Shown: piece after piece, positions 14,570-44,690 of the stretch | How positions within the stretch are numbered: position 1 is the first letter of the stretch | Layout: each line of letters opens with the position of its first letter | Source of the DNA: Candidatus Nomurabacteria bacterium | GTDB lineage: Bacteria > Patescibacteriota > Patescibacteriia > HK-STAS-PATE-3 | Assembly (NCBI GenBank): GCA_023898465.1 | Contig: CP060223.1 | Location: 256,001 to 320,000 of the forward strand | Reading direction: 5' to 3' | DNA: 64,000 nucleotides | Notes under the pieces: model-generated | Database searches by the model: none | Told to the model about the DNA's origin: nothing | The model's input: only the letters and a program-made list of their open reading frames with translations | Program-made: the position numbers and the translations under genes

Positions 14570-14894
14570 TACTTGACAACCCACTTCACAGGAGTACACT
14601 AAATGCACAATTGGTGGCGATCTCTGCCTGGCACTGACCAGGATGTCTGGAGACGCCATGTTTTTGTATAGGCGTATTCCACCCTCCCTTGCCGTGGCGT
14701 TGGGGAGCGCGGAATAGTTCCGGGCTTCATTTCCTCACATGAGGAAAGCGGCTTTGTTGCCGTTTTGCACTTTGAAATGCATGGAGGTTCGCCATGACTT
14801 GGCGTTTCCGACTCTTCCTGCTCATGGCCATCGCGTTGACCATGACACCCCTCGCTTTCATGACCGGCTGTCAGGAGCTGCCGACGGAGGGGGA
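14570..14894 (+). repeat. Copy B of the duplicated promoter + leader + lipoprotein signal-peptide module
   Basis: See copy A. The two copies are offset by 3597 nt at the 5' end. The first 33 codons (MTWRFRLFLLMAIALTMTPLAFMTGCQELPTEG) are identical at protein level. Confidence 0.9.
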
Positions 14895-15492
14895 GACTTC
14901 GGTGATCTCTGATGAGTTGCCGGATGCTTCACCCTCAGCTCAGTCAAGCCCGATGACTTGGCCCTCTTCGATCCAGGATTTCAAACTCCCTTATGATGGG
15001 ATCCGGGATGCATGCGGGGGTCAGATTTGGAAGGTTGTTTGCGGGTACGGATGTGGTTATCATCACAACACAAACTACATGGCCGCCGCGTACCATTCGA
15101 TTGATCTTGTACGGCAGGATGCGCCGACCACTCATAGCGCAGTACTCGCTCCGGCGCGTGGCATCGTTTCGTTTGTCGGATGGAGGAATGGGTACGGTTG
15201 GTGCGTGGAGATGGATCATCGAAACGGCTGGAAGTCGCTTGTGGCCCATCTCGAAACGGATCCTTGGGAATTCGTCCATACCTATGACGACCTGCGGCAG
15301 GGGACTTTCCTGGGCTATGCAGGGAACAGCGGAGCGAGTACGACACCCCACATTCACTTCTCGGTGTGGCGGAACAACGTCACTCATACGCTCGATGGCG
15401 TATCGTTGATCAACCCGCGTCTAAATGGGCGATACAATTCCGGCAATGATTATGTTGCGCCACCGACGGGAAATCCGAACCCGATTCCTTAA
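14794..15492 (+). CDS. Lipoprotein, M23 (LytM/lysostaphin-type) metallopeptidase
   Basis: The N-terminal 33 aa are the same as in the CHAP protein. GNSGASTTPHIHFSV matches the M23 HxH motif. An upstream YHSIDL stands where HxxxD is expected, with spacing one residue short. Confidence 0.8.
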   Translation: MTWRFRLFLLMAIALTMTPLAFMTGCQELPTEGETSVISDELPDASPSAQSSPMTWPSSIQDFKLPYDGIRDACGGQIWKVVCGYGCGYHHNTNYMAAAYHSIDLVRQDAPTTHSAVLAPARGIVSFVGWRNGYGWCVEMDHRNGWKSLVAHLETDPWEFVHTYDDLRQGTFLGYAGNSGASTTPHIHFSVWRNNVTHTLDGVSLINPRLNGRYNSGNDYVAPPTGNPNPIP

Positions 15493-15668: not shown

Positions 15669-16682
15669 ATGAATCGTTTTTCTATCTTCATCGCAGTGTT
15701 CGTTCTTATCAGCGCAGTGGTTTATGCTTTCTTTTTTGCTACATTATTTGGGGAAAAGAAAGCTATTGAAGGAGTGCAGGGACCTGCTTTTATGTTTGCA
15801 ACCCTGCCTGACTCAGATGCATCTGCCGCGATAAGCATTTTTGAGATTCCTACAATGTCGAAGCGAAAGGCTGAAGACACATCTTTGCCAATGCATTTTC
15901 TTAAAAAACTAGGAGATCCGAGAGAGTATTTTGATCCCATACTTTCTTCAAGTGGTGCATATTTGGCTTTTAATCGTAATATTGGGGAGCCGAAACAGGA
16001 TAAGACAAATTTAGTAATACTTGCAGCTGACGGAAAAGAAAGGAGCGTGGAGAGCGGCTCTGCTGGAGATATAGGAATAGGAATGCTCACGCCCTTGCAG
16101 TGGAGTGCTGATGAAAAAACGCTCTACGCTTTTTATACACACGCAACTGAAGGTAATATCGTAGGCCTGGTGGCAATTGATGTGGCAACTTTAAGCCAAC
16201 AACGAATTGAAAAAATTGATGATCTACGTGTAAGTAACTACGTCTTTGATGAAGTCGGAAATACCTACGGTTTTGAACCGCACTATCGATTCCGCCCTGA
16301 AGACGAGGCTCAAACAACCTTTTATCGAATTTCTTTGACTAGTGGCGAAACAAAAAGCTTTACACTCCAGCAATCGAGTTTGGACGATCTCTTGACCGTA
16401 GATCCAAGCGGGAGATACCTCGTGTACGCAAACGGAGATGATTTTAATTCTCGTAACATTTGGATGTATGACATGGAAACCGGTGAGGAGCGCGCGTTGA
16501 CTGAAAATGCTGTTGTTAATGAAATTTTGCCCTGGAAAGATGGATATTTGGTATTTCTGGAGGAAAGTGTAAACACCCCCGCAGAAAAAACACTTGTATC
16601 ATACGATGTAAATTCTGGCATTCGCAAAGTTCTTTTAGAAAATGTTACAGGGACGTTCCGGCTTCTTGGTTGGTATCCCTAA
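15669..16682 (+). CDS. Membrane-anchored beta-propeller-like protein (TolB/PD40-like repeats)
   Basis: 337 aa with an N-terminal TM helix. Repeated D-P-S-G-x-Y-L-(V/A)-(Y/F) type segments (LSSSGAYLAFN, DPSGRYLVYANGD...IWMYDMETGEERALT) resemble WD40-like/PD40 blades. Confidence 0.5.
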   Translation: MNRFSIFIAVFVLISAVVYAFFFATLFGEKKAIEGVQGPAFMFATLPDSDASAAISIFEIPTMSKRKAEDTSLPMHFLKKLGDPREYFDPILSSSGAYLAFNRNIGEPKQDKTNLVILAADGKERSVESGSAGDIGIGMLTPLQWSADEKTLYAFYTHATEGNIVGLVAIDVATLSQQRIEKIDDLRVSNYVFDEVGNTYGFEPHYRFRPEDEAQTTFYRISLTSGETKSFTLQQSSLDDLLTVDPSGRYLVYANGDDFNSRNIWMYDMETGEERALTENAVVNEILPWKDGYLVFLEESVNTPAEKTLVSYDVNSGIRKVLLENVTGTFRLLGWYP

Positions 16683-16940
16683 TTTCATATATCAGTTGGG
16701 AGGTTTTTATTAAACCTTGCCCCTCCCCTTAAAAAGTGGTATAGTCATTGAGCTATTCTGAATATCTCAATATTCTAGCAACCGCGTGAAAATGTCAGCA
16801 AAAACAGACATCGCGGAGGGGGAAATCACTCAAGAGCAGCACATACTCTTGTATACTCAAGCGTCCCTAGTAAAAAGGGATGTTTTTTGTGTGCAAAGTA
16901 GCCTCGTAGCTGCCACAAGTTCTGAAAGGAGCGAAGGCGC

Positions 16941-17600
16941 ATGTTAGGTTATCTTTTGCTCATTATATCGGTTGTAGAGTTTTTTATTGGCCTGTACCTT
17001 ATTTTTCGCTATGAAAAAAGCCAGGCAACAACATATTACGGTCTCTTTGCAATAAGTGTTGCGATCTATGTTGCCGCGAACGGTTTCGGATTTACCCGAG
17101 CTTCTGATAACGAGTTTATTTTTGAGCAACTTGCTTGGTTTGGCGGCTTACTTAGCGCCCCATTTATCCTTGGCTTCAGTTATAGCTTTCCTAGCCCTAA
17201 AAAATATCCCACTGAGCTATTTCCGTGGGTAATTTGGCCAGTAGTGTTATTTGGCGCAGGAATTTTTACTTCAAATATTTTCCTGGAGAAAACGTATATT
17301 TATTCCTTTGCCGAAGGCTACACTGCGCCAATCGGTGTCTTTTTCTGGTTCGCCATTGCAGTATTTGCGATGTATTGGATATGGGCAATACGAAACCTGC
17401 TGTATACGAGATTGCACACAAGCGGTTTTTATAGGAATTTTCTTACCATTGTGCTCATAGGGCTTTTTTCATCACTGCTTATTTCAGCAATTTTTGATAT
17501 TTACATTCCCTTAGTTTCAGTCACGCGCTACGGATATATTGGAGCATTATTCTCGTCTATTTGGCTGTTTACTACCGCGTATTTAATGGTGAGGAAGTAA
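16941..17600 (+). CDS. Stand-alone 7TM module, paralog 1 (histidine-kinase N-terminal 7TM-like)
   Basis: 219 aa with about 7 hydrophobic helices. Aligns by eye with the first 230 aa or so of the kinase at 23014. Ends ...TTAYLMVRK* where the kinase reads ...ISYAIIRHR and continues. Confidence 0.8.
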   Translation: MLGYLLLIISVVEFFIGLYLIFRYEKSQATTYYGLFAISVAIYVAANGFGFTRASDNEFIFEQLAWFGGLLSAPFILGFSYSFPSPKKYPTELFPWVIWPVVLFGAGIFTSNIFLEKTYIYSFAEGYTAPIGVFFWFAIAVFAMYWIWAIRNLLYTRLHTSGFYRNFLTIVLIGLFSSLLISAIFDIYIPLVSVTRYGYIGALFSSIWLFTTAYLMVRK

Positions 17601-17601
17601 G

Positions 17602-18261
17602 ATGATTGGATATATATTACTCATTATCTCAGTTGTTGAAGTAATACTCGGTTTTTATTTGATTTTTCGATATGTAAAAAGTCCAGCAACTATATATTAC
17701 GGCCTATTCGCGCTAAGTGTAGCACTCTATGTAGGTGCAAACGGGTATGGTTTTAGTCCGTTTTCAGAAAATGATATATGGCTGGAAATAATTGCCTGGA
17801 TTGGCGGGACCTTTACCGCTCCTTTTATTCTTGGCTTCAGTTACTCATTCCCTTATCCACGTAAGTCCAATAAGGAAATACTGTCTTTAGTTCTTAGTCC
17901 ACTCGTTTTTTTCTTCGTCGTAATACTTTTTTCTAATACTTTTGTAGATCATAATAGTGTTATCAGCTTTGATGAAGGATTTCAAAGACCTGTCGGGGAG
18001 TTACACTGGTTTGTATTATCAGTATTCTTTTTCTATTGGGTTTGGTCTTTTATTGAACTAGTAAAGAGTCGAAAAAAATCCGACGGCTTTAATAAGAATT
18101 TTCTTCTTATTTTAATTATAGGCTTAGTTTTTTCTTTGTTGGTTTCGGTATTTACTAACATCATTCATCCACTTGTCGATGTTTCAAAGTTAGGTTATAT
18201 GGGCCCCTTAGCCTCTTCAATCTGGCTATTTATTACTGGGTACTTGATATTGAGGAAGTAA
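17602..18261 (+). CDS. Stand-alone 7TM module, paralog 2
   Basis: 219 aa, collinear with paralog 1 (LLIISVVE..YLIFRY.KS.AT.YYGLFA, APFILGFSYSFP, SSIWLF). Starts 1 nt after the upstream stop. Confidence 0.8.
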   Translation: MIGYILLIISVVEVILGFYLIFRYVKSPATIYYGLFALSVALYVGANGYGFSPFSENDIWLEIIAWIGGTFTAPFILGFSYSFPYPRKSNKEILSLVLSPLVFFFVVILFSNTFVDHNSVISFDEGFQRPVGELHWFVLSVFFFYWVWSFIELVKSRKKSDGFNKNFLLILIIGLVFSLLVSVFTNIIHPLVDVSKLGYMGPLASSIWLFITGYLILRK

Positions 18262-18932
18262 TGAACACCTTTCATTTAGTTTTACTTTTTACACTTTTCT
18301 TTATTCACGCGACTCTCGCAATATGGATGTTGCGTAGATATGTGCAGACGCTATCCATTCGTTATTACTCAGGCTTTTTATTTGGACTAGCACTTATTGC
18401 ACTATTAAATGGTTTATTGCTGTTATTTGGCGGTCAGGAGAGTCAAACAGTCCTTCATAAGATCGGCTTTATCTCAGGCACCTTCACTTTTGTGATGTTC
18501 TTTATGTTTAGTAAGTACTTTCCAATTTCTACTGCAAGACCAAACTCCCGCGACATTCTTTTTTGGGTAATTCCGATTACATTTTTTATTCCATTCATAC
18601 TTTTTAATCAGCAGTTTATCCAGTCTGTGATTATAGAAAATGGAATAAGTAAGCCTACATTTGGAGTCTGGTATACACCATTTATGTTAGTTTTGGCCAC
18701 CTTTGTTCTGGGGGCTATCTATAATCTCATACAGAAATATAAAATAACCACTGAACTTGAAATTAGGAAGAACATTAGAGACATTACGGCAGTATTTTTC
18801 GTATCAGGACTCCTTGGCTTTTTGTTGGACGTTGTGTTGCCAAGGTTTAATGTTTATACGGCACATTACTTTGCCATTGAATCTTCACTTTTTGTTGCGC
18901 TAACTACTGCAATTATTATTGCAAAGAAGTAA
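18261..18932 (+). CDS. Stand-alone 7TM module, paralog 3 (divergent)
   Basis: 223 aa with the same helix layout. TAATG overlap with paralog 2. Ends ...AIIIAKK*. Confidence 0.75.
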   Translation: MNTFHLVLLFTLFFIHATLAIWMLRRYVQTLSIRYYSGFLFGLALIALLNGLLLLFGGQESQTVLHKIGFISGTFTFVMFFMFSKYFPISTARPNSRDILFWVIPITFFIPFILFNQQFIQSVIIENGISKPTFGVWYTPFMLVLATFVLGAIYNLIQKYKITTELEIRKNIRDITAVFFVSGLLGFLLDVVLPRFNVYTAHYFAIESSLFVALTTAIIIAKK

Positions 18933-18933
18933 G

Positions 18934-19605
18934 ATGAAAGAGTTTCTCATCATTGCAAATTATCTGGTTGGAATAGGGGAGTTGATGCTCGCTGGATATT
19001 TTTGGAAAACAAACAGCGGCAGCGCAATTCGGAAGGTGATGGTGTTGTTGGCGTTTTCGACTGGTATGTGGGTCATTTTTACCGGAACCTTTACCTACCG
19101 CTGGATTTTGCTTGATTACTTTGATCTCGGCATATCATTTGTATATTTCTTTGGAATTTTGTTCCTTACCGCCTTACTTCATTTAGTAATTCTCTTTCCT
19201 CACAAGATTTTCCCGTTTGATAGGCTACATACAGTTTTGTTGTATATTCCAACACTCATATTAGGTTTTGCCGCTTTTACTCCAGCGATAATTAAAGAAA
19301 ATATCACTCCGTCGAGCGGGTATACCACAAGTTATCCCGGACCAGCACATTGGATGTTTAATAGCTATCTTTTTCTCATGTATGCAATGGTGATAATCCT
19401 ACTCATTGTTAAGATCAAGCGTTTTGATGGATTTAGCAGAGATAACGCAAAAACTTTGCTTTGGGGTATTATTTTAGGCGGCCTACCCATCGTTTTCTTA
19501 GATTTGGTTTTGACAACTTTGGGCATCTACCCAAATGCTGCCGTTGCCAGCCTTTTCACAGTTGTCTGGCTTGGGTTTACTACTTACATAATTGTACGGA
19601 AATGA
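18934..19605 (+). CDS. Stand-alone 7TM module, paralog 4
   Basis: The ATG at 18934 lies 1 nt after the paralog 3 stop (ORF track start is 18919). Ends ...TTYIIVRK*. Confidence 0.75.
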   Translation: MKEFLIIANYLVGIGELMLAGYFWKTNSGSAIRKVMVLLAFSTGMWVIFTGTFTYRWILLDYFDLGISFVYFFGILFLTALLHLVILFPHKIFPFDRLHTVLLYIPTLILGFAAFTPAIIKENITPSSGYTTSYPGPAHWMFNSYLFLMYAMVIILLIVKIKRFDGFSRDNAKTLLWGIILGGLPIVFLDLVLTTLGIYPNAAVASLFTVVWLGFTTYIIVRK

Positions 19606-20288
19606 ACGGAGAAATAGTATTTTTTGATTTAATTTTACTTAGCGTTGTTGGATTATTAGAATTAGCCTTTGGGATTTATTTAATAGTCCGTTATGTGAGG
19701 ACAAGTTCGATAGTATTTTTTGCACTTTTCGTTTTCTTTCTTTCTTTGTGGGTGCTTACAAATGCGGCTGCTTTCGTAATACCAATACATAATGTCTTCT
19801 TTGATATTGATTCAAAGTTGAGTTTTGTTTTTGCAATATTACTTTTTCCAGCGCTATACTTATATGTAATTAATTTTCCCATCCCTACAATATTAATAAA
19901 TTGGCGTTTAATACTTTTTGTGTTTACTGCGCCAATACTTCTTAGTACAATGATTTTAGGGTCGGGAACGGTTGTATTTGGATTTGATAAATTGATAGAG
20001 AATCAGCCAACTATATTTGGAGAAGCTTTTTGGGCCTATTCTTTTTATATGTTGTTCATGTATGCAATTATTTTATTTGAATTAATAAGGCAGATTAATA
20101 AGTCCAAGGGTTCTCACAGATGGTATGCACAAATTTTATTTTTTGCTGTTTTCATTTCTGGCGCAATAGGGCTATTATTTAATCTTGTTCTGCCTTCGAT
20201 GTTCGATATTAGAATTGCTTATTGGATAGCCCCATCTAGTTCAATTATTTGGCTTGCTCTTGTTTGGTGGGCGACGCAGAGGAAATAA
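19602..20288 (+). CDS. Stand-alone 7TM module, paralog 5
   Basis: ATGA overlap with paralog 4. The ORF track start at 19461 runs inside paralog 4. Ends ...SSSIIWLALVWWATQRK*. Confidence 0.75.
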   Translation: MNGEIVFFDLILLSVVGLLELAFGIYLIVRYVRTSSIVFFALFVFFLSLWVLTNAAAFVIPIHNVFFDIDSKLSFVFAILLFPALYLYVINFPIPTILINWRLILFVFTAPILLSTMILGSGTVVFGFDKLIENQPTIFGEAFWAYSFYMLFMYAIILFELIRQINKSKGSHRWYAQILFFAVFISGAIGLLFNLVLPSMFDIRIAYWIAPSSSIIWLALVWWATQRK

Positions 20289-20290
20289 TT

Positions 20291-20959
20291 ATGGATTATG
20301 GTGTATACTTATTATTAGTTATTGCGGGCCTAGAACTTTGGTTGACAATATACATATTTACTCGCTACCAAAGAACAAAAGCTATTTTTTTCTTTGGACT
20401 CTTTACTGCTTGTGTGACTGGATGGGTGCTAACTAATTCTATTCCGCTTCTTTTTTCCTATTCAAGTTGGCAATCTGATTTTTTGCAACGCCTCTCGTTT
20501 TCTTTTGCTGCATTTATTTTTCCTTTTCTTTATTATTATATTCTTTTACATCCATTTCCAAGCATTGATATCAACAAGCGATTCATATTATTCACATCCC
20601 TCCCGGCCTTCTTTGTTTCTATTGCCACTCTCTTTGATAAAAACTTTGTTATAGGATTCTATGATACCTCAGTAAGGGCAACAATATACGGCGACTCTTT
20701 TTGGATGTATGCGGTAGTTATGTTGCTATTTGCAATTCTTATTCCTGTGGAAATAATTTTAAAAAGAAGAAGACTGGATGGATATTATCGCTACCAATTC
20801 AAATTATTATTCAGCGCCTATTTGTTTTCAGCGGCAGTAGGATTACTAATTAATTTAATATTGCCATATTTTTTCGACTTAAAAATTAACTATTGGCTTG
20901 GGCCCGCGTCATCGATTATTTGGGTGAGTATGGTTTGGTGGGTTATTAATAGAAGGTAA
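20291..20959 (+). CDS. Stand-alone 7TM module, paralog 6
   Basis: The ATG lies 2 nt after the paralog 5 stop. Closest to paralog 5 (..ASSIIWVSMVWWVINRR*). Confidence 0.75.
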   Translation: MDYGVYLLLVIAGLELWLTIYIFTRYQRTKAIFFFGLFTACVTGWVLTNSIPLLFSYSSWQSDFLQRLSFSFAAFIFPFLYYYILLHPFPSIDINKRFILFTSLPAFFVSIATLFDKNFVIGFYDTSVRATIYGDSFWMYAVVMLLFAILIPVEIILKRRRLDGYYRYQFKLLFSAYLFSAAVGLLINLILPYFFDLKINYWLGPASSIIWVSMVWWVINRR

Positions 20960-20981
20960 TGTTTAATTGCGATTTTCAAAA

Positions 20982-21641
20982 ATGACAATAGGACATGTAG
21001 TTGAAGAATTTAAAAGTCGGTATATTAAAAGACAACTAGATCATAATTTTATTGTTTTAGAGACTCAAAATAACAACCAACTAAATTTATCATATAGATT
21101 AAGATACGAAGTATATTGTCTAGAATGTAAATATTTAGACGTGAATAATTATCCCAATAGGTCTGAAAAGGATGAGTATGATGATTGTTCAATACATTTC
21201 ATCGCAATAAATAAAAAGACAAAAAATGTTGTTGGCACAATTCGACTTATTAAACGCACTAATAGGAATTTGCCAATAGAGCATGATTTTGGAATTTCTC
21301 TGAATGGATCAATTAGTTCTAAAAAAGTTGTGGAGATTTCTAGACTAGCGGTTGATAAAAAATTTAGGAAGTCGAGTTTAAAGCATCCAAGTATTATGTT
21401 AGGTTTATTAAAAGCATGCTATAGATACGCCGAAGAAAATGGAATTGCAATGTTTGTAGCGGCAATAGATCAAAATGTATATAATATGTTAAAAAAGTTT
21501 CGTTTTTCATTTAATTTATTAGGGGAACCAAAACATTATATGGGTTCAATCTCAGTACCCGTGTTAATTGATATCGAAAAAGAATCGCAGTGGTTAAAAA
21601 TAGTAAATCCTGGACTATGGACATTTCTTTCAAGCAATTAG
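20982..21641 (+). CDS. GNAT-fold N-acyl amino acid / acyl-homoserine-lactone-synthase-like acyltransferase (FeeM / PEP-CTERM-associated acyltransferase-like)
   Basis: LSYRLRYEVYCLECKYLD, IHFIAI...VVGTIRLI, VVEISRLAVDKKFR and MFVAAID follow the pattern I recall for the LuxI-related Acetyltransf_5/N-acyl amino acid synthase family. The ORF track starts at the TTG at 20967; the ATG at 20982 is preferred. Confidence 0.55.
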   Translation: MTIGHVVEEFKSRYIKRQLDHNFIVLETQNNNQLNLSYRLRYEVYCLECKYLDVNNYPNRSEKDEYDDCSIHFIAINKKTKNVVGTIRLIKRTNRNLPIEHDFGISLNGSISSKKVVEISRLAVDKKFRKSSLKHPSIMLGLLKACYRYAEENGIAMFVAAIDQNVYNMLKKFRFSFNLLGEPKHYMGSISVPVLIDIEKESQWLKIVNPGLWTFLSSN

Positions 21642-22276
21642 CTCATAAAATTGTATTATTCTATTTAAGACGGGCTAGCCACAAAAAATACCTAACATTT
21701 AGCTTTAGCGATCTTATTATACTCTGTCCCCCAAACGTGTTCCCGCCTAATTCGTTTACCACTGACCTAATGGCTAAGTGGCTAGTAAACGAAGAGATGG
21801 AAGGTAAACAGGTTTTAGAGATGGGTTGTGGAAGTGGATACATTTCGATTATTGCCGCACGAAAAGGGGCAAAAGTAATTGCAAGCGACATCAGCCCTAT
21901 CGCGGTTGATGCCGCAAAAATCAATACCATAATAAATAAGATAAAAAATGTCGAATGTTATTGCTCGGACTTATTTTCTAACTTAGAAGGAAAGTTTGAT
22001 TTAATTCTCTTCAACGCACCTTTTTTTCATGGAGAACCCACTTCTTTATTAGATAACAATTGGATGAGTAAGGATGGGGAGGTGGTCAGTAAATTTTTTA
22101 AAGACGCAAGAGAATATATTAATCCAATGGGGAAGGTAGTTATTACTAGTTCGACTCTAGTTAATCAAGATGCTCTGAAAATATTAATTAAAGAAAGCGG
22201 ATTTAATATTGAAAACGTGAAAACAAAAAATATTATTATTGAAAAATTTTTCTTGTATGAATGTAGAGCTTTTTAA
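21617..22276 (+). CDS. Class I SAM-dependent methyltransferase (HemK/PrmC-like amino-methyltransferase pattern)
   Basis: Motif I is VLEMGCGSGYISI, the acidic loop is ASDIS, and motif IV is FNAPFF (an NPPY-like variant). The start is ambiguous (GTG at 21590 or ATG at 21617) and overlaps the upstream gene. Confidence 0.7.
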   Translation: MDISFKQLAHKIVLFYLRRASHKKYLTFSFSDLIILCPPNVFPPNSFTTDLMAKWLVNEEMEGKQVLEMGCGSGYISIIAARKGAKVIASDISPIAVDAAKINTIINKIKNVECYCSDLFSNLEGKFDLILFNAPFFHGEPTSLLDNNWMSKDGEVVSKFFKDAREYINPMGKVVITSSTLVNQDALKILIKESGFNIENVKTKNIIIEKFFLYECRAF

Positions 22277-23021
22277 TAGAAATCAACCATTTATAACTAA
22301 AAAAGAACAAAAAATTCTCACAAAACAGAAAGTTTGTTTTATTGGATGTGGTCTTGCAAGTCAAGCCGCACTCCTTATTGCCAGGACAGGTATTGGAAAA
22401 ATAGTACTTTGTGATGGAGACAAGGTCGAGTTGAGTAATCTTAACAGGCAAGCATTTGACATTGGTGATATTGGAGAAAACAAAGCAGAAAGCTTAATGA
22501 GAAAGATATTAAGCATCAATTCAAATATTGAAGTGGAGCAGTATCCGGTTTTTTTAAAAAAATCGATTATTTCAAATGTAATAAAAGATTCAGATATTGT
22601 AGTGAGCACAGTTGATGCGGGTCCTTTATATTTTGAAATTCAGGAATATATTAATAAAAAAGGCATTATGGGAATATTCCCCATGAATATTGCCTTTGGA
22701 TCACTCGTATTCGTATCAAAAAATGGAAAGGGTGATTTTAAATCGTTATTTGGGGAGAAATTACCTGAAAATAATTCTGAATTTTTTTATCAACTTTACA
22801 ATAAACTTAAACAAAATGTACCAAGCTATTTATCTCCTCATATTGAAATCTTATTAAGTGGATTTAAAACAAACAGTCCAATTCCACAGCTAGGATTAAC
22901 GACTTTACTTACCGCATCTTTGATTACTGAGATAATACTGGCTGGGAACAGGGCTGAGCAATTATTGTTAACTCCAAGATTCTATTATTTTGATATTCGT
23001 GAATTCGTTCGAAATGGATAA
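22257..23021 (+). CDS. ThiF/MoeB/HesA-family E1-like adenylyltransferase
   Basis: KVCFIGCGLASQAALLIARTGIGKIVLCDGDKVELSNLNRQ carries the canonical ThiF nucleotide-binding signature. The protein is about 254 aa with no rhodanese or CxxC tail. It overlaps both neighbours. Confidence 0.75.
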   Translation: MNVELFNRNQPFITKKEQKILTKQKVCFIGCGLASQAALLIARTGIGKIVLCDGDKVELSNLNRQAFDIGDIGENKAESLMRKILSINSNIEVEQYPVFLKKSIISNVIKDSDIVVSTVDAGPLYFEIQEYINKKGIMGIFPMNIAFGSLVFVSKNGKGDFKSLFGEKLPENNSEFFYQLYNKLKQNVPSYLSPHIEILLSGFKTNSPIPQLGLTTLLTASLITEIILAGNRAEQLLLTPRFYYFDIREFVRNG

Positions 23022-25785
23022 ATTGCTAATCCCACAAAATTTAGCACTTATTATATTGCTCTTCGGATATTTAAGTCTGATAATTCTTCTTTTGAGACGC
23101 GAGAACACAAGTAGTAGATTATTTGGTGCTACCGTTATTACTCTCTCTCTTTGGATATTATCAATTTTACTTTTAAATATCAGCTCCTCAAAAGAAGAAA
23201 TTTTATTCTTTTCGCGATCGTCATTTATCGGGCCAATTATTCTCATACCAACATTCCTTCTTTTTTCTTGGTATTTTCCGAAAAAAACTATACATCTAAG
23301 GAAAAGTATTATTATTGTCGTTTCTTTAACGGCATGCTTCTTTTTAATTGCGACGTTTACGCCGTATGTAATTCAAGATGTCACAATAAAAGTAGGTGAA
23401 GGAGTCAGTCTAACCTATCAACTTGGAACACTATATTTTTTCCAATTTATTTTTTTAGCATTCTCATTACTTTATTCTTTTTTTATTCTTTATAAAAAAT
23501 ATAAAAAATCAAAAGGCCTAGAAAAATTACAAATTAGATATCTTTTTCTTGGCACCGTTATTACTGCAGTATTGACCTTGAGTACTAACGTAATTTTACC
23601 AATTTTTAATTTTTCATCTCTTGCTGGATTTGGCCCTCTTAGTACTCTATTTCTCTTATTTTTTATTTCATATGCCATCATCCGCCACCGCCTCCTCGAC
23701 ATCCGTCTTGTTATCACGCGTTCCTTAATTTATTTTTTCCTTATCCTGTTCGTCGCAGGATCATTTACTGGAATTACCTTACTCGCAAAGTTATTATTTG
23801 AAGAATTTGTTGGTGAAATAACCGCTACAATACTTGTTTCTCTCATCATCGTTATTGGTTTCGAGCCATTGAAGCGATGGGTCTCTCGTTCTACTGACTC
23901 GGTTTTTTATAAGGCAAAAATTGACTACGCTGATGTGTTGCGGGAAATCAGCGAAATTATTAACCGTGAAATTGTCCTGGATCCGCTCGTCACCTCCATC
24001 AGCGCCACGCTTGAGAGTAGGCTCAAGCTCAAGCACGCGGGCATTGCATTGAAAAGCGCCAAGGGGGATTTTGTTGAATACATAAACCACGATCACTTTG
24101 ATCCCAAAACCTTTTCCAGCCGATCCGGTATGATCGGATTCTTACGTTTCACATCTCGTATCACCATTTTAGAATCGCTCGAGCGCAAAATTCAGGACAC
24201 GAGCGAAGGGGACGAATTAAAAGAGTTGAAGCGATCGCGCGAGGAAATGGAAACGAACCACATTGCCTTAGCTGCTCCGATTGTGGCGCAAGGCAAATTC
24301 AACGCAGTCCTCATCCTGGGGCCGAAACTTTCCGGTGATAGCTTCTCGACCGAAGAGTTGAAGATGATTGAAACGTTGACTCCGCAGATCGGATCAGCGA
24401 TTGAGAAATCCATGCTCTTCGAAGAGGTGAAGAACTTCTCCAGTCAATTAAAGGTGAAAGTTGATGAGGCGACAAAGGAGTTGAAAGAGCGCAATCGTTT
24501 CCTTGGCGCTTTGCAGGATATCACGAGCACCATTACGCACTCTCTTGATTACAAAAAAGTAGGACAGGACATTGTGGACGGAGTAGCCAAGAAGCTCGGT
24601 TACATCGGTGCCGTGCTCCTGCTCTATGATCCAAAGACTGGCCAGTCATGGGCTGAGGCAATTACGCAAACGCCGGTTACTCGCGCGGCAATGAAATTAC
24701 TGCCCAAGCCGGTGAACGAATACCATGGGCACGTGGATGAGAATTCCATGACCGACCAAGTTATTTTGACTGGTGAAATGCGCGAAAGTGATTCACTAGC
24801 TGAATTCTTAGCACCGGCCGTGCCTAAAGCTTTTTGTTTCGCCATGCAGAAGTTGATTCGCGCAAAGTATATTGTGGCAGTGCCAATCTATGCCGAGGGT
24901 GAAATTCTCGGTGCCTTGGTTTTTGTGCTCGGGAAGAAGAAAGAGGAGATCAGTAGTCAGGAGCGGGCTATGATGATCGCTTTAGGTGACCAGGCCGGAA
25001 TCGTGCTGCACAATATTAAACTCTTTGATCGCATCCAGGATACGAATAAGCAGTTGGAGCAGGCGAATGAACACTTGAAGCAGCTTGATCAAGCTAAGTC
25101 GGAATTCGTCTCCATTGCCTCGCACCAATTACGCACGCCGATGACTGGCATTATGGGCTATCTTTCCATGATGGTGCAGGGGGATTTCGGTAAAATGGAG
25201 CCGGAGCACACCAAACTGCTGACTGAATTGTTGAGTGAGAGTCAGCGCATGATTCGTCTCATCAACCTCTTCTTGAACGTCTCAAAGATTGAGTCAGGTA
25301 AGATGACGATTAACAAGCAGCCGACGCAGATTAAGGATCTCATTGACCAACAGATTAAGGATCAGAAAAAGCCAGCCGAGGATAAAGGATTGGTGCTGAA
25401 AGTGGAAGTTGATAAAGAGCTGCCGATAATTGAAGCTGACGGTGATAAGCTCATGAACGTGGTGCAGAACCTGATTGATAACGCTATCAAATATACAGAG
25501 CGGGGAAGCGTGACTGTTCGCGCCTTTCAGACCGATGGCCATATCCAGGTAGAAATTCAAGACACTGGCGTTGGTATTAAGCGCGAAGATGTGCATGAAC
25601 TCTTTGGTAAGTTTGTGCGCGGGTCTGGCATTGCGCAGATCAATCCTGATGGCTCCGGTCTCGGACTCTTTATTGCCAAGTCAATTGTGGAAATGCACGG
25701 CGGTAAGATTTGGGTAGAATCAGAAGGTGAAGGGAAAGGTACTAAATTCGCATTCACGATACCAATTACACAGCCGAAAAAATGA
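23014..25785 (+). CDS. Sensor histidine kinase: N-terminal 7TM module + GAF-like regions + HisKA + HATPase_c
   Basis: About 230 aa of 7TM region, then long soluble GAF-like regions. H-box FVSIASHQLRTPMT, N-box NLIDNAIKYT, G-boxes DTGVGI and GSGLGL. The ATG at 23014 overlaps the ThiF stop by 8 nt. Confidence 0.9.
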   Translation: MDKLLIPQNLALIILLFGYLSLIILLLRRENTSSRLFGATVITLSLWILSILLLNISSSKEEILFFSRSSFIGPIILIPTFLLFSWYFPKKTIHLRKSIIIVVSLTACFFLIATFTPYVIQDVTIKVGEGVSLTYQLGTLYFFQFIFLAFSLLYSFFILYKKYKKSKGLEKLQIRYLFLGTVITAVLTLSTNVILPIFNFSSLAGFGPLSTLFLLFFISYAIIRHRLLDIRLVITRSLIYFFLILFVAGSFTGITLLAKLLFEEFVGEITATILVSLIIVIGFEPLKRWVSRSTDSVFYKAKIDYADVLREISEIINREIVLDPLVTSISATLESRLKLKHAGIALKSAKGDFVEYINHDHFDPKTFSSRSGMIGFLRFTSRITILESLERKIQDTSEGDELKELKRSREEMETNHIALAAPIVAQGKFNAVLILGPKLSGDSFSTEELKMIETLTPQIGSAIEKSMLFEEVKNFSSQLKVKVDEATKELKERNRFLGALQDITSTITHSLDYKKVGQDIVDGVAKKLGYIGAVLLLYDPKTGQSWAEAITQTPVTRAAMKLLPKPVNEYHGHVDENSMTDQVILTGEMRESDSLAEFLAPAVPKAFCFAMQKLIRAKYIVAVPIYAEGEILGALVFVLGKKKEEISSQERAMMIALGDQAGIVLHNIKLFDRIQDTNKQLEQANEHLKQLDQAKSEFVSIASHQLRTPMTGIMGYLSMMVQGDFGKMEPEHTKLLTELLSESQRMIRLINLFLNVSKIESGKMTINKQPTQIKDLIDQQIKDQKKPAEDKGLVLKVEVDKELPIIEADGDKLMNVVQNLIDNAIKYTERGSVTVRAFQTDGHIQVEIQDTGVGIKREDVHELFGKFVRGSGIAQINPDGSGLGLFIAKSIVEMHGGKIWVESEGEGKGTKFAFTIPITQPKK

Positions 25786-26216
25786 AACAGGTAAGGGGGA
25801 AACAACCAAAACGCATCCTACTTGTCGAGGACGAGCCGCTCTTAGCAACGATGTATATGTTGGCGTTGCAGCAACGAGTAAAGGCTGAGGTGTACGGGGC
25901 TAAGACACGCGAAGAAGCGGAGCGCATTATTGAGCGTGTGAAGCCGGATTTAGTGCTGCTTGATCTCATGATTCCCTCGATTACCATCCAAGACACGGAG
26001 CAGGATTTTCATCATCCAGTAGGGCTGCAATTCTTAGCCCAAATTCGGAAGAGTCCAAAGACGCGTTCAATCAAGGTAATGATTCTCTCCAACCTTGATG
26101 CGGATGAGCAACGCAAGCGGGCCATTGATTTAGGTGCCGAGGATTACCTATTAAAAGCCAGTCTGCAGCCGCACGCGATTGTGGAAAAGGTAAAGCATAG
26201 TTTAGGGATAAAATAA
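25782..26216 (+). CDS. Stand-alone response-regulator receiver (CheY-like) protein
   Basis: ILLVEDEP, DLVLLDLMIP and a lysine in ..LLKAS. There is no output domain. ATGA overlap with the kinase stop. Confidence 0.85.
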   Translation: MKQVRGKQPKRILLVEDEPLLATMYMLALQQRVKAEVYGAKTREEAERIIERVKPDLVLLDLMIPSITIQDTEQDFHHPVGLQFLAQIRKSPKTRSIKVMILSNLDADEQRKRAIDLGAEDYLLKASLQPHAIVEKVKHSLGIK

Positions 26217-26333
26217 GCCAGTCAATAATCTCATCCTTGACAGAGCCGGTGGTTTTTGTATACTTTCTGGCCCTGTTCTTTCCCATCGCGAATATCGGCA
26301 ACGGCCTCATTCTTAACATGTTTGGGAGGCCGT

Positions 26334-39666: not shown

Positions 39667-42600
39667 ATGGACTCTGCCCCATTAACACTACAAACGAAGA
39701 CACTGCAGAGGTCTTCCGATCTAAATAATTACAGACTCTATCGCGCAGCTCTTGAATGGGAGTTGATTGATCCTATTGTCATAGAAGACCGGGATGACAT
39801 GCATTCCGAAAGTAGTTGGCGTGATCGTCTTGAGCCGTATCATCATCAAGTAACTAACCTAATAACTTTTTGTCGTCGCCTACCTGTTACTTTACTGGCG
39901 GATGATGTCGGGTTAGGAAAAACAATTAGTGCTGGCCTAGTTTTAAGCGAGTTAATTTCGCGCGGGAGAATTTCAAAAATATTAATAGTTTGCCCAAAAA
40001 TACTTCGAGATCAGTGGAAAGAAGAATTGGAAATAAAGTTCCGAATTCCGTCCACAATTGTGACAGGAAGAGAATTAATTACGGCAAAGCCTCCTGAAGA
40101 ACCAGGAGCGGTAATTACCACATACAATACGGCCAGACTGTATTTAGATAGAATTGACCAGAATGGTTTTGAAATATTGATACTTGATGAGGCGCATAAA
40201 TTGCGGAATCTATATGGTGTTGACCCAACACCTCAAGTTGCAATTAAATTCCGTAAAGCTCTGGCTGACCGGATGTTTAAGTACGTATTAATGTTAACTG
40301 CAACGCCGATCCAGAACAGACTATGGGATCTCTACTCGTTGGTTGACTTATTAACCGTTGCACGCGGCCATGAAAATCCCTTTGGAACGCCAGGTATTTT
40401 TGCGAGAAAATTTATTGCAGATAGTCGCACACAAGCGCGTCAGCTTAATCCGGAGATGCGGGATGAGTTTCGCTCAATTATTTACGGTTATATGTCTCGG
40501 GTTCGTCGTGGAGATGCAAAACTCCACTTCCCAGAGCGGGTAGTACAGTTGCATAAAGTTGACCCAACACCAGAAGAATTGCAGTTGATCGGTGTGGTCG
40601 GAAAATCTATACAACAACTGAATGCGCTTACACAAATTGTAATCCTCCAAGCTTTGGTGAGTAGTCCAGAAGCGCTAATAAAGATGTTAGAAGGAATGGC
40701 TAAAAAAGGAACCGTACCGCGTGAGGTGTTGGCGAACGTTAAGGAATCAGCCAAAGAAATTCAAATCACTACAAAACTAAAAGGTTTGGGCGCGTTAGTT
40801 GAAAAACTTAGAAAGGAGCAACCCAATACTTGGCGGGTGGTAGTTTTTACAAGATGGCGAGAAACTCAAACAACTATCGAAACTTTTCTTGAAAAGCAAG
40901 GAGTAAAATGCGGCTTGATAAATGGCGATTCAAGTAAGCGAAATCAGGAAACAATCCAAAGATTTAAAAAAGACTTACCAGACATTAATGTAATTATTTC
41001 TACTGAAGCAGGTTCGGAGGGCGTTAACCTTCAGGCCGCTAATGTTTTGGTTAATTACGATCTCCCCTGGAATCCAATGATAGTGGAACAAAGAATAGGT
41101 CGTATTCAAAGACTTGCTTCTAATTATGCAAATGTTTCTATTTTTAATATTGTTTTGCAAAATACCTTTGAAGAATATATTGTAGGGCGCTTGATGGAAA
41201 AGTTGCAGATGGCTTCTCATGCAATTGGGGATATTGAAGCACTATTGGAAGCATCCGGCATTGATGAAGGTGAAGAAAATGGCTCAAGTGGTTTTGAAGA
41301 AAAAATTCGCCAGTTAGTAGTTGCATCTTTAGCTGGAAAAGATGTTGAGCAGGCAACTCGTAAAGCTGAACAGAGTATTTCAGAAGCTAAAACAGAATTA
41401 GACCATGAAGAAAAGAACATTAATGCTTTACTTGGGGGGATGAGTGATTCTCTAGATTCTGGTCCAAGATGTCCGAAGCTTCCTCAAACTACTAAGTCGA
41501 TGGATGTCCGTGATTTTACTACGGCTGCTCTTATGAGCTTAGGCGCGGAACTACATCCAAAAAAGGATGGTTTATTAGTTTCACAACTTGCTGGGAAAAA
41601 AGAATTAATCCGATTTGATAATAACACTCTGAGCAGTGAAGAGGAGAGTGTCTTATATGCACCGGGAACTTCAACTTTTGAACGCTTAGTCCATAAAGTT
41701 GCAAATGTAGGAAAACACATTGTTGAAGACCTTGATAAAAACCCCCAACAGCAAATTGAGAAAGTAAGTCGTCAATGGGTCGAAAGTTTTGGCGGAGACT
41801 TCGAAAATGTAACGGTAGAGGACGTTTCTCGATGTTTTGCAGGAGTAGCAATAATTCGTGCAAGATCAACAGTAGCTCACGATAGTTATGAGCGTCTCAT
41901 TGAGGTTTCGTGCGCTCCCACTGAGCATTTCAGTTTTGTGACAAGAACGGGATTGGAACCCATCGGAGACTATATTGAAAATCCGACATCTGTTGGTGCG
42001 CTTTCAGAAAAATTAATTGAAAAAGCCAGCCAAGACTCGAGTATTCTTGAGTTCTGTAGATTTTATTTAGAACGAAGATCTCAAGAAATTGCCTCCGCAG
42101 GAAATGACGAAAGAAAAAAGAAAAAGCTTGAGGATGAGTTTACGCCCCGTCTTGAATTTTCCCTAGTCGGTCTTGAGGGCAAGGTTCATCGGATAGTTAA
42201 AAATCAGGTCTCTTATAGAATTGAACGTGAGGGCCAATACAAAAGTACCCTCATGATAACCCCCTCTTCTGGGCAAGTTGATATGCCGGGGATGGGACAA
42301 TGCATGAAAACAGGTAAGACTGTACCGAGCGATTGCTTAGCAAAGTGCGAAATAAGCGGACTTATAGTATTGCGGCATTTTCTTGATCAATCAGAGATCA
42401 GTAATCGACTGGCGCTCCCTGAGCACATCGTTTTATGTACGTTAAGCAACAAGCGAGTGCTAGCGGACGAAGCTATAAAATCAGATGTTACGGGCAAACT
42501 AGTCGCAAAGAAGTTTTTAAAAACATCTTCTCTGAGTGGCAAATTCGCTGAACCACAGTTCATTAACACTTGTGAGTTTACAAAAACAGAAGTTCTGGAA

Positions 42601-43194
42601 AGCGAAATTGCGGTCAGCCAGATTTCAGGAAAAAGATATCGCATTGATGAGCAACTTAAATCCGCAGTTTCAGGAAAACTAGGCCATCGACAAGAATTTG
42701 TAGCAAGTAGTATTTCATCAGCCCCACTTCTTGAAGAAGAAGCCATTCGTTCGGTCACTGGAAAATTTTGTGCACCAATGGAAGCGAGGCCCTGCACTTG
42801 GAGTGGTCGAAAGTGTCACCCCGAAGACCTTAGGACTTGCGAGTTGACCGGAGTCCAAATTCATTCAGAGTACGTAACGCTCGAACCACCAATTCGTTTA
42901 GAAACCCTAAATAATCTTTTGAATGGCACGAGGAGCAAATCTGACAAATTGGAAGTATGGCCTTCACTTTCAAATAGCGTTACAGCTTTATTAAAAGCAA
43001 AACGTTGTAAAATTGAAACAGCAGAAGTTTCACCTAGTGACGATATTTTGGCCGCTTCTATAGAGCTTCGAACTTTTCTAGGCCTGCGCGTGAGTCACAT
43101 TGGCGTACTTTATTCAATAAAGGATGGATCCGTAGTCGGGCGTGTTGCTAGAGGCAAGCGTGGTGATAAGGGCTGGAATCAAACTAAGAACTAA
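39667..43194 (+). CDS. SNF2-family helicase/translocase with a long C-terminal extension containing 15-residue repeats
   Basis: Motif I LADDVGLGKT, motif II LILDEAHKLRN, motif III LMLTATPIQN, helicase-C STEAGSEGVNLQ and QRIGRIQRL. About 650 further aa follow. AT-rich relative to the flanks. Confidence 0.85.
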   Translation: MDSAPLTLQTKTLQRSSDLNNYRLYRAALEWELIDPIVIEDRDDMHSESSWRDRLEPYHHQVTNLITFCRRLPVTLLADDVGLGKTISAGLVLSELISRGRISKILIVCPKILRDQWKEELEIKFRIPSTIVTGRELITAKPPEEPGAVITTYNTARLYLDRIDQNGFEILILDEAHKLRNLYGVDPTPQVAIKFRKALADRMFKYVLMLTATPIQNRLWDLYSLVDLLTVARGHENPFGTPGIFARKFIADSRTQARQLNPEMRDEFRSIIYGYMSRVRRGDAKLHFPERVVQLHKVDPTPEELQLIGVVGKSIQQLNALTQIVILQALVSSPEALIKMLEGMAKKGTVPREVLANVKESAKEIQITTKLKGLGALVEKLRKEQPNTWRVVVFTRWRETQTTIETFLEKQGVKCGLINGDSSKRNQETIQRFKKDLPDINVIISTEAGSEGVNLQAANVLVNYDLPWNPMIVEQRIGRIQRLASNYANVSIFNIVLQNTFEEYIVGRLMEKLQMASHAIGDIEALLEASGIDEGEENGSSGFEEKIRQLVVASLAGKDVEQATRKAEQSISEAKTELDHEEKNINALLGGMSDSLDSGPRCPKLPQTTKSMDVRDFTTAALMSLGAELHPKKDGLLVSQLAGKKELIRFDNNTLSSEEESVLYAPGTSTFERLVHKVANVGKHIVEDLDKNPQQQIEKVSRQWVESFGGDFENVTVEDVSRCFAGVAIIRARSTVAHDSYERLIEVSCAPTEHFSFVTRTGLEPIGDYIENPTSVGALSEKLIEKASQDSSILEFCRFYLERRSQEIASAGNDERKKKKLEDEFTPRLEFSLVGLEGKVHRIVKNQVSYRIEREGQYKSTLMITPSSGQVDMPGMGQCMKTGKTVPSDCLAKCEISGLIVLRHFLDQSEISNRLALPEHIVLCTLSNKRVLADEAIKSDVTGKLVAKKFLKTSSLSGKFAEPQFINTCEFTKTEVLESEIAVSQISGKRYRIDEQLKSAVSGKLGHRQEFVASSISSAPLLEEEAIRSVTGKFCAPMEARPCTWSGRKCHPEDLRTCELTGVQIHSEYVTLEPPIRLETLNNLLNGTRSKSDKLEVWPSLSNSVTALLKAKRCKIETAEVSPSDDILAASIELRTFLGLRVSHIGVLYSIKDGSVVGRVARGKRGDKGWNQTKN

Positions 43195-43195
43195 T

Positions 43196-44686: not shown

Positions 44687-44690
44687 ACCT

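Follow-up and report, generated by a model that had tools for sequence, protein, structure and literature searches.

The question raised by positions 16941-26216 of the DNA analysed here (a stretch of 64,000 nucleotides from Candidatus Nomurabacteria bacterium, contig CP060223.1, positions 256,001 to 320,000, hereafter the window) is what kind of signalling system is built from six free-standing seven-transmembrane (7TM) proteins, three small-molecule enzymes, a membrane sensor histidine kinase and a response regulator that consists of a receiver alone. A preliminary description had proposed a quorum-like or host-sensing circuit in which the enzymes make a signal, the kinase senses it and the free modules diversify the range of ligands. 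Analysis of related loci revealed co-exchange, as one unit, of the enzyme genes with the kinase's own 7TM bundle, which gives strong indirect support to the pairing of enzymes and kinase as signal and sensor.

All eleven co-directional open reading frames (ORFs) of that description are present on the + strand, and they are packed as tightly as it claimed, neighbouring genes either overlapping by 4-52 nt or lying no more than 22 nt apart. Domain calls from Pfam and NCBIfam bore out the gene content. None of the eleven proteins is an exosortase or a PEP-CTERM substrate and none carries a DNA-binding output domain, the regulator being a receiver only, as had been stated. The genes, together with the exchangeable unit to which we refer as the cassette, are as follows (lengths in amino acids, aa).

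16941-17600, + strand: free 7TM module 1, 219 aa; HisKA_7TM 34.6 bits, cut-off 28.6; identity to module 2 53%
17602-18261, + strand: free 7TM module 2, 219 aa; HisKA_7TM 41.1 bits, above the cut-off of 28.6
18261-18932, + strand: free 7TM module 3, 223 aa; recognised by paralogue alignment and a family hidden Markov model (HMM) at 217 bits; nothing significant in Pfam
18934-19605, + strand: free 7TM module 4, 223 aa from its ATG, with an alternative TTG start at 18919; HisKA_7TM 22.4 bits, sub-threshold
19602-20288, + strand: free 7TM module 5, 228 aa; HisKA_7TM sub-threshold; its start overlaps the end of module 4 (ATGA)
20291-20959, + strand: free 7TM module 6, 222 aa; family HMM 237 bits; best match in another genome 41% identical; no HisKA_7TM match
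20982-21641, + strand: GNAT of the NAS type (N-acyl amino acid synthase), FeeM / TIGR03694 family; TIGR03694 139.6 bits, cut-off 111.95
21617-22276, + strand: S-adenosylmethionine-dependent N-methyltransferase, MTS / HemK2-like, with an NAPF motif; TIGR00537 108.8 bits, cut-off 87; MTS 1e-19
22257-23021, + strand: ThiF/E1-like adenylyltransferase, ~254 aa, without a CxxC pair; PF00899 E = 4e-29
23014-25785, + strand: sensor histidine kinase, 923 aa, delimited by Pfam, hydropathy and family-wide alignments
25782-26216, + strand: single-domain response regulator, receiver only, 144 aa; Response_reg 59.7 bits (residues 12-137); start codon overlapping the stop of the kinase gene (ATGA)
~20960-23660, + strand: exchangeable cassette, comprising the three enzyme genes and the first ~216 kinase codons (7TM bundle), delimited by GC content at third codon positions (GC3) and homology breakpoints

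The kinase opens with its 7TM bundle (codons 1-~223; HisKA_7TM 59.2 bits, cut-off 28.6), which is followed by two further transmembrane (TM) helices, two GAF domains, HisKA and HATPase_c. The H-box and the N, G1, F and G2 boxes can all be read in its translation.

Recurrence of the locus and co-exchange of enzymes with the kinase sensor

We scanned one genome per GTDB species with the linker-GAF-GAF region of the kinase as query and found the kinase family in at least 125 species representatives of Patescibacteria, the Candidate Phyla Radiation (CPR), with full-length relatives at 39-58% identity; 80 loci were kept. All records titled with a lineage give a CPR group; many TPA records are titled only generically (for example 'uncultured Gammaproteobacteria bacterium'), and one 2.6-kb contig was binned elsewhere. 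The loci were annotated with HMMs built from the window and from the first contexts inspected, recurrent unassigned neighbours were assigned by Pfam, and enzyme classes were taken from custom HMMs and BLAST clusters. The first three contexts inspected all carry arrays of free HisKA_7TM proteins upstream of the kinase; two of them also encode a GNAT and a ThiF protein and one an alpha-oxoamine synthase (KBL/BioF/SPT/CqsA family). Among the 45 loci with at least 8.5 kb of flank, 39 have at least one free 7TM gene on the same strand upstream of the kinase. Related loci typically hold two or three such genes and four at most, and the window's six form the largest array seen. Gene-neighbourhood comparison thus showed the linkage to be widespread, contrary to the possibility, raised in the preliminary description, that it might be confined to this genome.

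The genes that accompany the kinase vary from locus to locus. Those upstream of it in the same 45 loci include class I methyltransferases (14), NAS-type GNATs (12), ThiF proteins (8), alpha-oxoamine synthases (7) and PlsC (6). Beside cassettes of the window's kind there are others with alpha-oxoamine synthases, with a second type of GNAT and a methyltransferase, with PaaK-like adenylating enzymes or with PlsC, and most occupants appear to fit a theme of acyl and amino-acid chemistry. The methyltransferase family of the window was seen in the window alone among the 80+ loci examined. Proteins of ~470 aa (450-490) that join a 7TM bundle to a GAF-like region and lack a kinase domain occur in 24 of the 45 loci (for example L011:4206-5666, L025:5225-6652 and L064:1115-2479) and not in the window. 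Singletons within 4 kb upstream of the kinases include mobile-element genes at several loci (a GIY-YIG nuclease, a serine resolvase/recombinase and an IS200-type transposase; for example L007:5848-6201).

Base composition sets the cassette apart from its surroundings. GC content drops from ~0.48 to 0.27-0.40 across the locus of the window and climbs back inside the kinase gene. Specifically, GC3 is 0.22 for the GNAT, 0.33 for the methyltransferase, 0.24 for ThiF and 0.23 for kinase codons 1-216, against 0.55 for the remainder of the kinase, 0.54 for the receiver, a value typical of the host genome, and 0.51 +/- 0.05 for 25 other long ORFs. The family as a whole shows this pattern. In 62 of 63 loci GC3 is lower in the kinase's 7TM part than in the remainder of that gene, in 61 of 63 the enzymes upstream fall below the core, and enzyme GC3 correlates with 7TM GC3 (r = 0.86). 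Where core GC3 exceeds 0.5, the means are 0.61 for the core, 0.29 for the kinase 7TM, 0.30 for the enzymes and 0.43 for the free modules. Codon bias of membrane proteins was considered as the cause of the low GC3 and rejected, since the free 7TM genes are less AT-rich than the kinase 7TM.

The sensor bundle follows the enzymes rather than the kinase to which it is fused. Pairwise identity in the GAF1 and GAF2 domains correlates well with that in the histidine kinase (HK) domain (r = 0.83 and 0.81), whereas the 7TM bundle correlates with it only weakly (r = 0.34). When the nearest kinase is picked by 7TM identity, its enzyme class agrees in 47 of 54 cases, as compared with 12 of 54 by GAF1, 8 by GAF2, 17 by HK and 11 by the whole core. 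Permutation of the class labels gave 10.7 +/- 3.4, with a maximum of 25 in 20,000 trials. When pairs of loci were ranked by the excess of core over 7TM identity, all of the top 15 differed in enzyme class; when they were ranked by the excess of 7TM over core identity, all of the top 25 shared it. The clearest case is the pair L007/L008, whose cores are 97% identical, whose 7TM bundles are 27% identical and whose enzymes are different.

Nucleotide comparison of this pair locates the breakpoints. Identity is ~90% up to the end of the last free module, nothing is detectable across the enzymes and the first ~226 kinase codons, and beyond codon ~226 identity resumes at 91.5% and continues through the remainder of the kinase gene. 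L079/L074 and L064/L077 are two further pairs with this arrangement. In most pairs the right-hand junction coincides with the end of the 7TM bundle, and in L079/L074 it lies in the linker/GAF1 region, at ~codon 370, giving an overall range of ~codons 205-370; it is repeatedly in frame, and the kinase is intact in every case. In the window, nucleotide homology to the nearest relatives, L001 and L002, starts only at 23659-23662 (kinase codon ~216), and the left edge of the cassette is placed by composition alone. The exchangeable unit is therefore made up of the enzyme genes and the seven-helix bundle, the same structural unit that the free modules represent. The polymorphism is established between species representatives; a metagenome scan for cassette polymorphism within a species, seeded with the kinase core of L007, returned only distant kinases of at most 44% identity.

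Free 7TM modules and the conserved core

The six free modules of the window (219-228 aa) each have seven hydrophobic helices and are mutual paralogues at 16-53% identity. HisKA_7TM (PF16927) scores above its cut-off in modules 1 and 2 and in the kinase, is sub-threshold in modules 4 and 5 and is absent from modules 3 and 6, which were recognised by alignment and the family HMM only. Each of the six has matches at 35-50% identity among the free modules of other genomes, with module 1 giving the best value (50%). They fold like G-protein-coupled receptors (GPCRs), to which their sequence identity is 6-13%. No retinal-binding lysine or other cofactor signature turned up, no search having been aimed at one. 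No polar residue is invariant across the seven 7TM copies of the window, which would argue for binding or scaffolding and not for catalysis.

The modules are under purifying selection. Orthologous pairs gave ratios of nonsynonymous to synonymous substitution (dN/dS) of 0.07-0.26 with a median of 0.12, values at odds with the neutral evolution that the preliminary description had held open for them, and every module has its own start and stop codon and mostly its own Shine-Dalgarno site. We predict that they are expressed, selected proteins, and neither decaying duplicates nor donor cassettes.

Comparison across loci further suggests that the free modules are a stable component distinct from the cassette, inherited vertically with the kinase core. 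In other genomes they find their best matches at loci closely related in HK identity (median rank 2), and these matches share the enzyme class of the locus in only 37 of 103 cases. The best cross-locus match is of the same type for 78 of 82 short free modules, 37 of 38 long free modules and 68 of 69 kinase 7TM domains, which points to three separate sequence groups. Both results speak against the earlier idea that the modules diversify the ligand range for the signal made by the synthase, since they track the phylogeny of the core without co-varying with the enzymes, and since they and the kinase sensor domains form distinct sequence groups. Because the modules are co-inherited with the core and a conserved hairpin of two TM helices follows the exchangeable bundle, it is reasonable to suppose that they might act in trans on the kinase core.

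The core has a history of its own. Its GAF2 domain (24544-25011) is closest, at 56-58% identity, to kinases P0007, P0016 and P0018, which are more distant in HK and GAF1, while the relatives nearest by HK and GAF1 (P0003-P0006) show only 42-46% identity in GAF2, so that the kinase core is itself a mosaic.

A 129-aa fragment that is 99% identical to module 2 (17602-18261) lies on a 556-bp ENA contig, P0272, which indicates that the same organism or a very close strain was sampled in another data set. In 20 of the 45 loci a 190-aa protein, absent from the window, is encoded between the free modules and the kinase (for example L064:4845-5432 and L079:2242-2823). It has no Pfam match, and by eye its C-terminus resembles a ribbon-helix-helix DNA-binding motif; this protein could be the missing transcriptional output in the genomes that carry it.

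Two features upstream of module 1 concern expression of the locus.

16717-16745, + strand: promoter-like site TTGCCC-17-TATAGT, TG-extended, upstream of module 1; a 9/12 consensus match, which is weak evidence
16859-16885, + strand: hairpin followed by a U-run in the ~190-nt leader, identified by fold analysis; possibly an attenuator or the terminator of the upstream gene

The preliminary description had placed a single promoter before the genes and a separate one after them. Consensus matches do exist at 16717-16745 and at 26237-26264, the latter being the best of the region (11/12 consensus positions); promoter-like sites are no more numerous than expected by chance (34 observed against 31.7 +/- 6.4 in shuffles), and AT-rich genes carry internal matches of equal score. 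The leader (16750-16940) folds more stably than shuffled sequences (z = -2.8) and matches no Rfam family; its hairpin and U-run may act as an attenuator or may terminate the upstream gene. Within the array, the GAGGA Shine-Dalgarno-like motifs of modules 2, 3 and 6 lie inside the conserved C-terminal Arg-Lys codons of the preceding module. Specifically, at 17590-17601, 18249-18260 and 20279-20290 the Shine-Dalgarno site of the next gene (GAGGAAGTAAG-ATG) is encoded by these codons and the stop, so that protein sequence and translational coupling are constrained together. The cassette enzymes are likewise translationally coupled to the kinase. No precursor of a peptide pheromone is evident at the locus, where the sole small ORF (16786-16947) overlaps the leader and is without support.

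Upstream of the array the window encodes a Peptidase_M23 protein (14794-15492) and a 337-aa protein without a Pfam match (15669-16682), and in 8 of the 45 related loci, too, the array is preceded by an M23 gene. RgsP, a 7TM receptor, works with a peptidoglycan metallopeptidase (PMC6107284). Further downstream, a second stretch of low GC content (39667-45392; 0.41 against ~0.49) contains genes for an SNF2/helicase protein (1175 aa), a DUF2779 protein (514 aa) and a third protein of 233 aa without a significant Pfam match, and may be a defence or mobile island.

Probable chemistry of the cassette enzymes

The GNAT of the window matches FeeM (1.3e-15), Acetyltransf_5 (9.8e-15) and Autoind_synth (2e-12, 47.3 bits), and is weakly similar to the ornithine-lipid acyltransferase OlsB. 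A LuxI-type synthase of acyl-homoserine lactones (AHLs) was considered and rejected, as the NCBIfam AHL models score 40-44 bits against cut-offs of 250-292 and the cluster contains no LuxR-type gene. Enzymes of the TIGR03694/FeeM type synthesise N-acyl amino acids, and a link of this family to PEP-CTERM loci is on record (Craig et al. 2011, cited in PMC7293339 and PMC11072679). The nearest solved structures to the methyltransferase are N-methyltransferases, namely gentamicin N-methyltransferase, RsmC and PrmA. In the ThiF protein the adenylation motif DGDxVExSNLNRQ is intact and the downstream Asp is conserved; its nearest solved structures are 9egb/9egc (over the full length) and 9egd, followed by MccB and PaaA, 9egb being an uncharacterised ThiF protein of 265 aa. 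We sized the GNAT family by a HMMER search, and among 2,411 representative relatives there are one GNAT-ThiF fusion and several methyltransferase-GNAT fusions, which support a single pathway for the three enzymes of the window.

An NAS and a ThiF-like ATP-dependent cyclase together yield N-acyl oxazolones (bioRxiv 10.1101/2020.06.11.147165; PMC10404671; PMC12856293), and by analogy this chemistry, represented by OxzAB of Pseudoalteromonas and TyzACB/TrzAS of Mycobacterium, is probably a closer precedent for the window than the PEP-CTERM set. The likeness lies in the combination of an NAS-type GNAT with a ThiF-domain protein, and the GNAT-ThiF fusion among relatives of the window's GNAT points to a coupling of the same sort. 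The window differs from these pathways in that it has an extra N-methyltransferase, its ThiF protein cannot be placed in the TrzS/Rv1355c family and none of the 11 cluster proteins is a flavin oxidase of the nitroreductase superfamily; moreover, none of the published pathways has been described with a linked sensor kinase. The known NAS/ThiF products are minor, labile specialised metabolites (bioRxiv 10.1101/2020.06.11.147165; PMC12856293). For the window we infer, in outline, an end product that is an N-acyl amino acid with an activated or cyclised carboxylate and an N-methyl group.

In some GNAT cassettes small multi-TM proteins of ~155 aa and ~105 aa, without a family match, are inserted, between GNAT and ThiF in L014, L015 and L037 and between GNAT and kinase in L024 and L047. 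These could be exporters or immunity proteins.

Competing explanations and what the locus may mean

We consider it somewhat better than an even chance that both a lipid-like molecule and the 7TM domain recognising it come from a plug-in cassette, that a conserved core and receiver relay the signal, and that the free 7TM proteins serve as stable accessory inputs. The conserved, vertically inherited chassis would then comprise the six free GPCR-fold proteins, the kinase from its eighth TM helix on and the receiver-only regulator, while the horizontally exchangeable plug-in would comprise the small-molecule enzymes and the sensor bundle fused in frame to the kinase. The GNAT would join an acyl thioester to an amino acid to form an N-acyl amino acid. 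ThiF would adenylate the carboxylate of this intermediate to give an oxazolone, as OxzB, TyzB and TrzS do, or some other ATP-dependent derivative, and the methyltransferase would add an N-methyl group. The amphiphilic product would enter or cross the membrane and be recognised by the co-inherited 7TM bundle, from which the signal would pass through the 2-TM hairpin to the GAF domains, the kinase and finally the phosphorylated stand-alone receiver, with the free 7TM proteins acting as extra receptors or modulators of the conserved core. The identity of the product, its recognition by the bundle, the role of the free modules and the output are the predicted parts of this account. The product might act between cells, in pherotype-specific quorum sensing or kin recognition, or report on the state of the cell's own membrane; sequence cannot tell these apart, nor can it decide between quorum sensing and host sensing.

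Several results weigh against the plug-in account. Some loci carry genes of housekeeping appearance just upstream of the kinase (CoaBC, the NAD synthase NadE and PlsC, with MetRS further upstream). Not every occupant is an obvious signal synthase, and the presence of CoaBC and NadE is the main weakness of a general reading of this position as a slot for such enzymes. The regulator, which lacks an output domain, is encoded next to the kinase in just 7 of the 45 related loci. The cassette of the window is without a close relative, its best 7TM identity being 36%, so its transfer is deduced from composition and from sister loci. Histories were compared by identity matrices and not by trees. On the chemical side, the ThiF protein reached the cut-off of no curated family (56.7 bits against 476 for the Rv1355c/TrzS model), and the nitroreductase-superfamily flavin oxidase that completes the known oxazolone pathways was not found among the 11 cluster proteins; in related loci there is one weak TM1586_NiRdase match among 43 unassigned genes within 4 kb upstream of the kinases. 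Since the flavin oxidase is missing and ThiF cannot be assigned to the TrzS family, the end product can be drawn only in outline, and a stabilised unsaturated oxazolone is not expected.

The housekeeping-type CoaBC, NadE and PlsC also bear on an alternative that we regard as unlikely while giving it real weight, namely that the linkage involves no ligand relationship. A recombination hot spot would gather unrelated metabolic genes and swap the adjacent 7TM bundle along with them, and the kinase would sense a host cue or envelope stress. The resolvase/recombinase, IS200 transposase and GIY-YIG genes among the singletons near the kinases agree with such a hot spot, and low GC3 is typical of any recently acquired DNA. 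Chance capture fits poorly, however, with a right-hand junction that recurs in frame in the N-terminal region of an always intact kinase, with a 7TM type that predicts the enzyme class (47/54), with recurrent occupants of a narrow theme (acyl transfer to amino acids, carboxylate activation and methylation) and with enzymes translationally coupled to the kinase. A further alternative, to which we give slightly less credence, makes the enzyme a co-sensor or membrane-lipid effector: aminolipids would be made or scavenged lipids remodelled, and the 7TM bundle would dock to the enzymes or monitor the bilayer in a cell-autonomous loop. CPR bacteria are thought to depend on scavenged lipids, the GNAT is weakly similar to OlsB, the alpha-oxoamine synthase of the L002 type scores well against serine palmitoyltransferase models, and PlsC, an AMP-binding acyl-activating enzyme and an alpha/beta hydrolase recur nearby. 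Homeostasis does not obviously require the frequent wholesale replacement of sensor and enzymes between sister species, however, and the described NAS/ThiF products are minor and labile, not bulk lipids (bioRxiv 10.1101/2020.06.11.147165; PMC12856293). This lipid-effector alternative overlaps with the plug-in account, from which it differs solely in whether the product acts between cells.

The two remaining alternatives fare much worse. The preliminary description had likened the genes to the acyltransferase, kinase and regulator of PEP-CTERM/exosortase loci, and the locus could in principle be such a regulatory module (TIGR03694, PrsK and PrsR) after loss of the sorting system. The likeness held for the acyltransferase, whose score exceeds the TIGR03694 cut-off and which in that set likewise accompanies a multi-TM histidine kinase, PrsK being a transmembrane kinase for whose sensor domain no ligand is known (Haft et al. 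2006, PMC1569441, for PrsK/PrsR). It failed for the other two proteins: kinase residues 1-689 gave no PrsK match (TIGR02916) at E <= 0.01 and PrsK is outside the 25 best families of the full protein, while the regulator scores 28.8 bits against the 502.6 of PrsR (TIGR02915) and has no sigma-54 or DNA-binding domain. The exopolysaccharide (EPS) context of that set is likewise missing, and a scan of the 11 cluster proteins and five flanking ORFs revealed neither an exosortase nor a PEP-CTERM protein. With two of its three defining proteins already contradicted, we consider this origin very improbable. We find it harder still to credit that the free 7TM genes recombine into the kinase gene in the manner of antigenic variation, as silent donor cassettes or as retired sensor domains. 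An array of partial paralogues directly upstream of a full-length gene, with modules that end exactly at the domain boundary where the kinase cassette has its junction, is what such a mechanism would produce. Nevertheless, the idea is largely refuted by the start, stop and Shine-Dalgarno signals of the individual modules, by purifying selection on their orthologues, by the three separate sequence groups (78/82, 37/38 and 68/69 best matches of the same type) and by the way in which the free modules track the core phylogeny rather than the cassette.

If the plug-in account is taken as the working model, the known kind that the locus resembles is the polymorphic two-component locus of synthase and receptor, and the closest functional analogues would be the comQXP and agr pherotype loci. 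In agr, the variable block covers the signal-making genes and the membrane sensor of the kinase, and the transmitter is conserved. In ComQXPA, the N-terminal membrane domain of ComP is variable and the cytoplasmic part conserved, and strains form pherotypes (PMC4008528). Like ComQXPA of Bacillus and agrBDCA of Staphylococcus, the locus of the window has signal-making genes, here putative ones, directly upstream of a polytopic membrane kinase and a regulator on one strand, with a variable block made up of these genes and the kinase sensor and with a conserved transmitter, a pattern seen here between sister species. Those systems use ribosomal peptide pheromones, allelic variation within one enzyme family and DNA-binding regulators, whereas here whole enzyme families are exchanged (NAS with ThiF, alpha-oxoamine synthases, methyltransferases, PlsC and others), the sensor is a 7TM bundle of GPCR fold and the regulator is a receiver only. 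Kinases of the HisKA_7TM, 7TMR-DISM and LytS (BtsS) types also take their input through a seven-helix membrane bundle, and BtsS is a 7TM receptor shown to bind a small molecule (PMC10653868). The present family differs from them in that the bundle also occurs on its own, in 1-6 genes per locus and in short (~220 aa) or 7TM-GAF (~470 aa) form, and in that the kinase's own bundle is modular and exchangeable. The resemblance to SRII-HtrII and to class C GPCR heterodimers is one of predicted trans action only, with sequence identity to GPCRs in the 6-13% range given above. We found no published description of the locus in the literature on HisKA_7TM, on 7TMR-DISM, on signalling in Patescibacteria/CPR or on NAS with PEP-CTERM or ThiF.

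CPR/Patescibacteria are very abundant, mostly uncultured bacteria with small genomes that often live as episymbionts, and little is known of the way in which they perceive partners and kin. What is new here is a conserved signalling chassis in more than 100 species whose sensor domain is exchanged together with small-molecule enzymes; the swapping of whole enzyme families, the occurrence of a GPCR-fold sensor both fused and free, and the spread over many CPR species are unusual. Nature seems here to have rewired the input of a histidine kinase in a modular way, at a defined junction, and this is of use for engineering sensors. The locus also extends NAS and ThiF (oxazolone-type) chemistry, whose role is open in Mycobacterium and in marine bacteria, to a setting in which a dedicated receptor is genetically attached. 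A bolder possibility, which we put forward tentatively and think rather less probable than not, is that CPR bacteria of Parcubacteria-type lineages share a plug-in chemical language, in which the enzymes for a lipid-like autoinducer, attached in frame to their own GPCR-fold receptor domain, move horizontally between species and give each lineage a private signal (pherotype), and in which free 7TM proteins act in trans on the 2-TM hairpin much as a sensory rhodopsin acts on its transducer. If this is true, CPR bacteria would have their first described endogenous system of quorum sensing or kin recognition, and bacteria an example of a histidine kinase to which free 7TM receptors couple.

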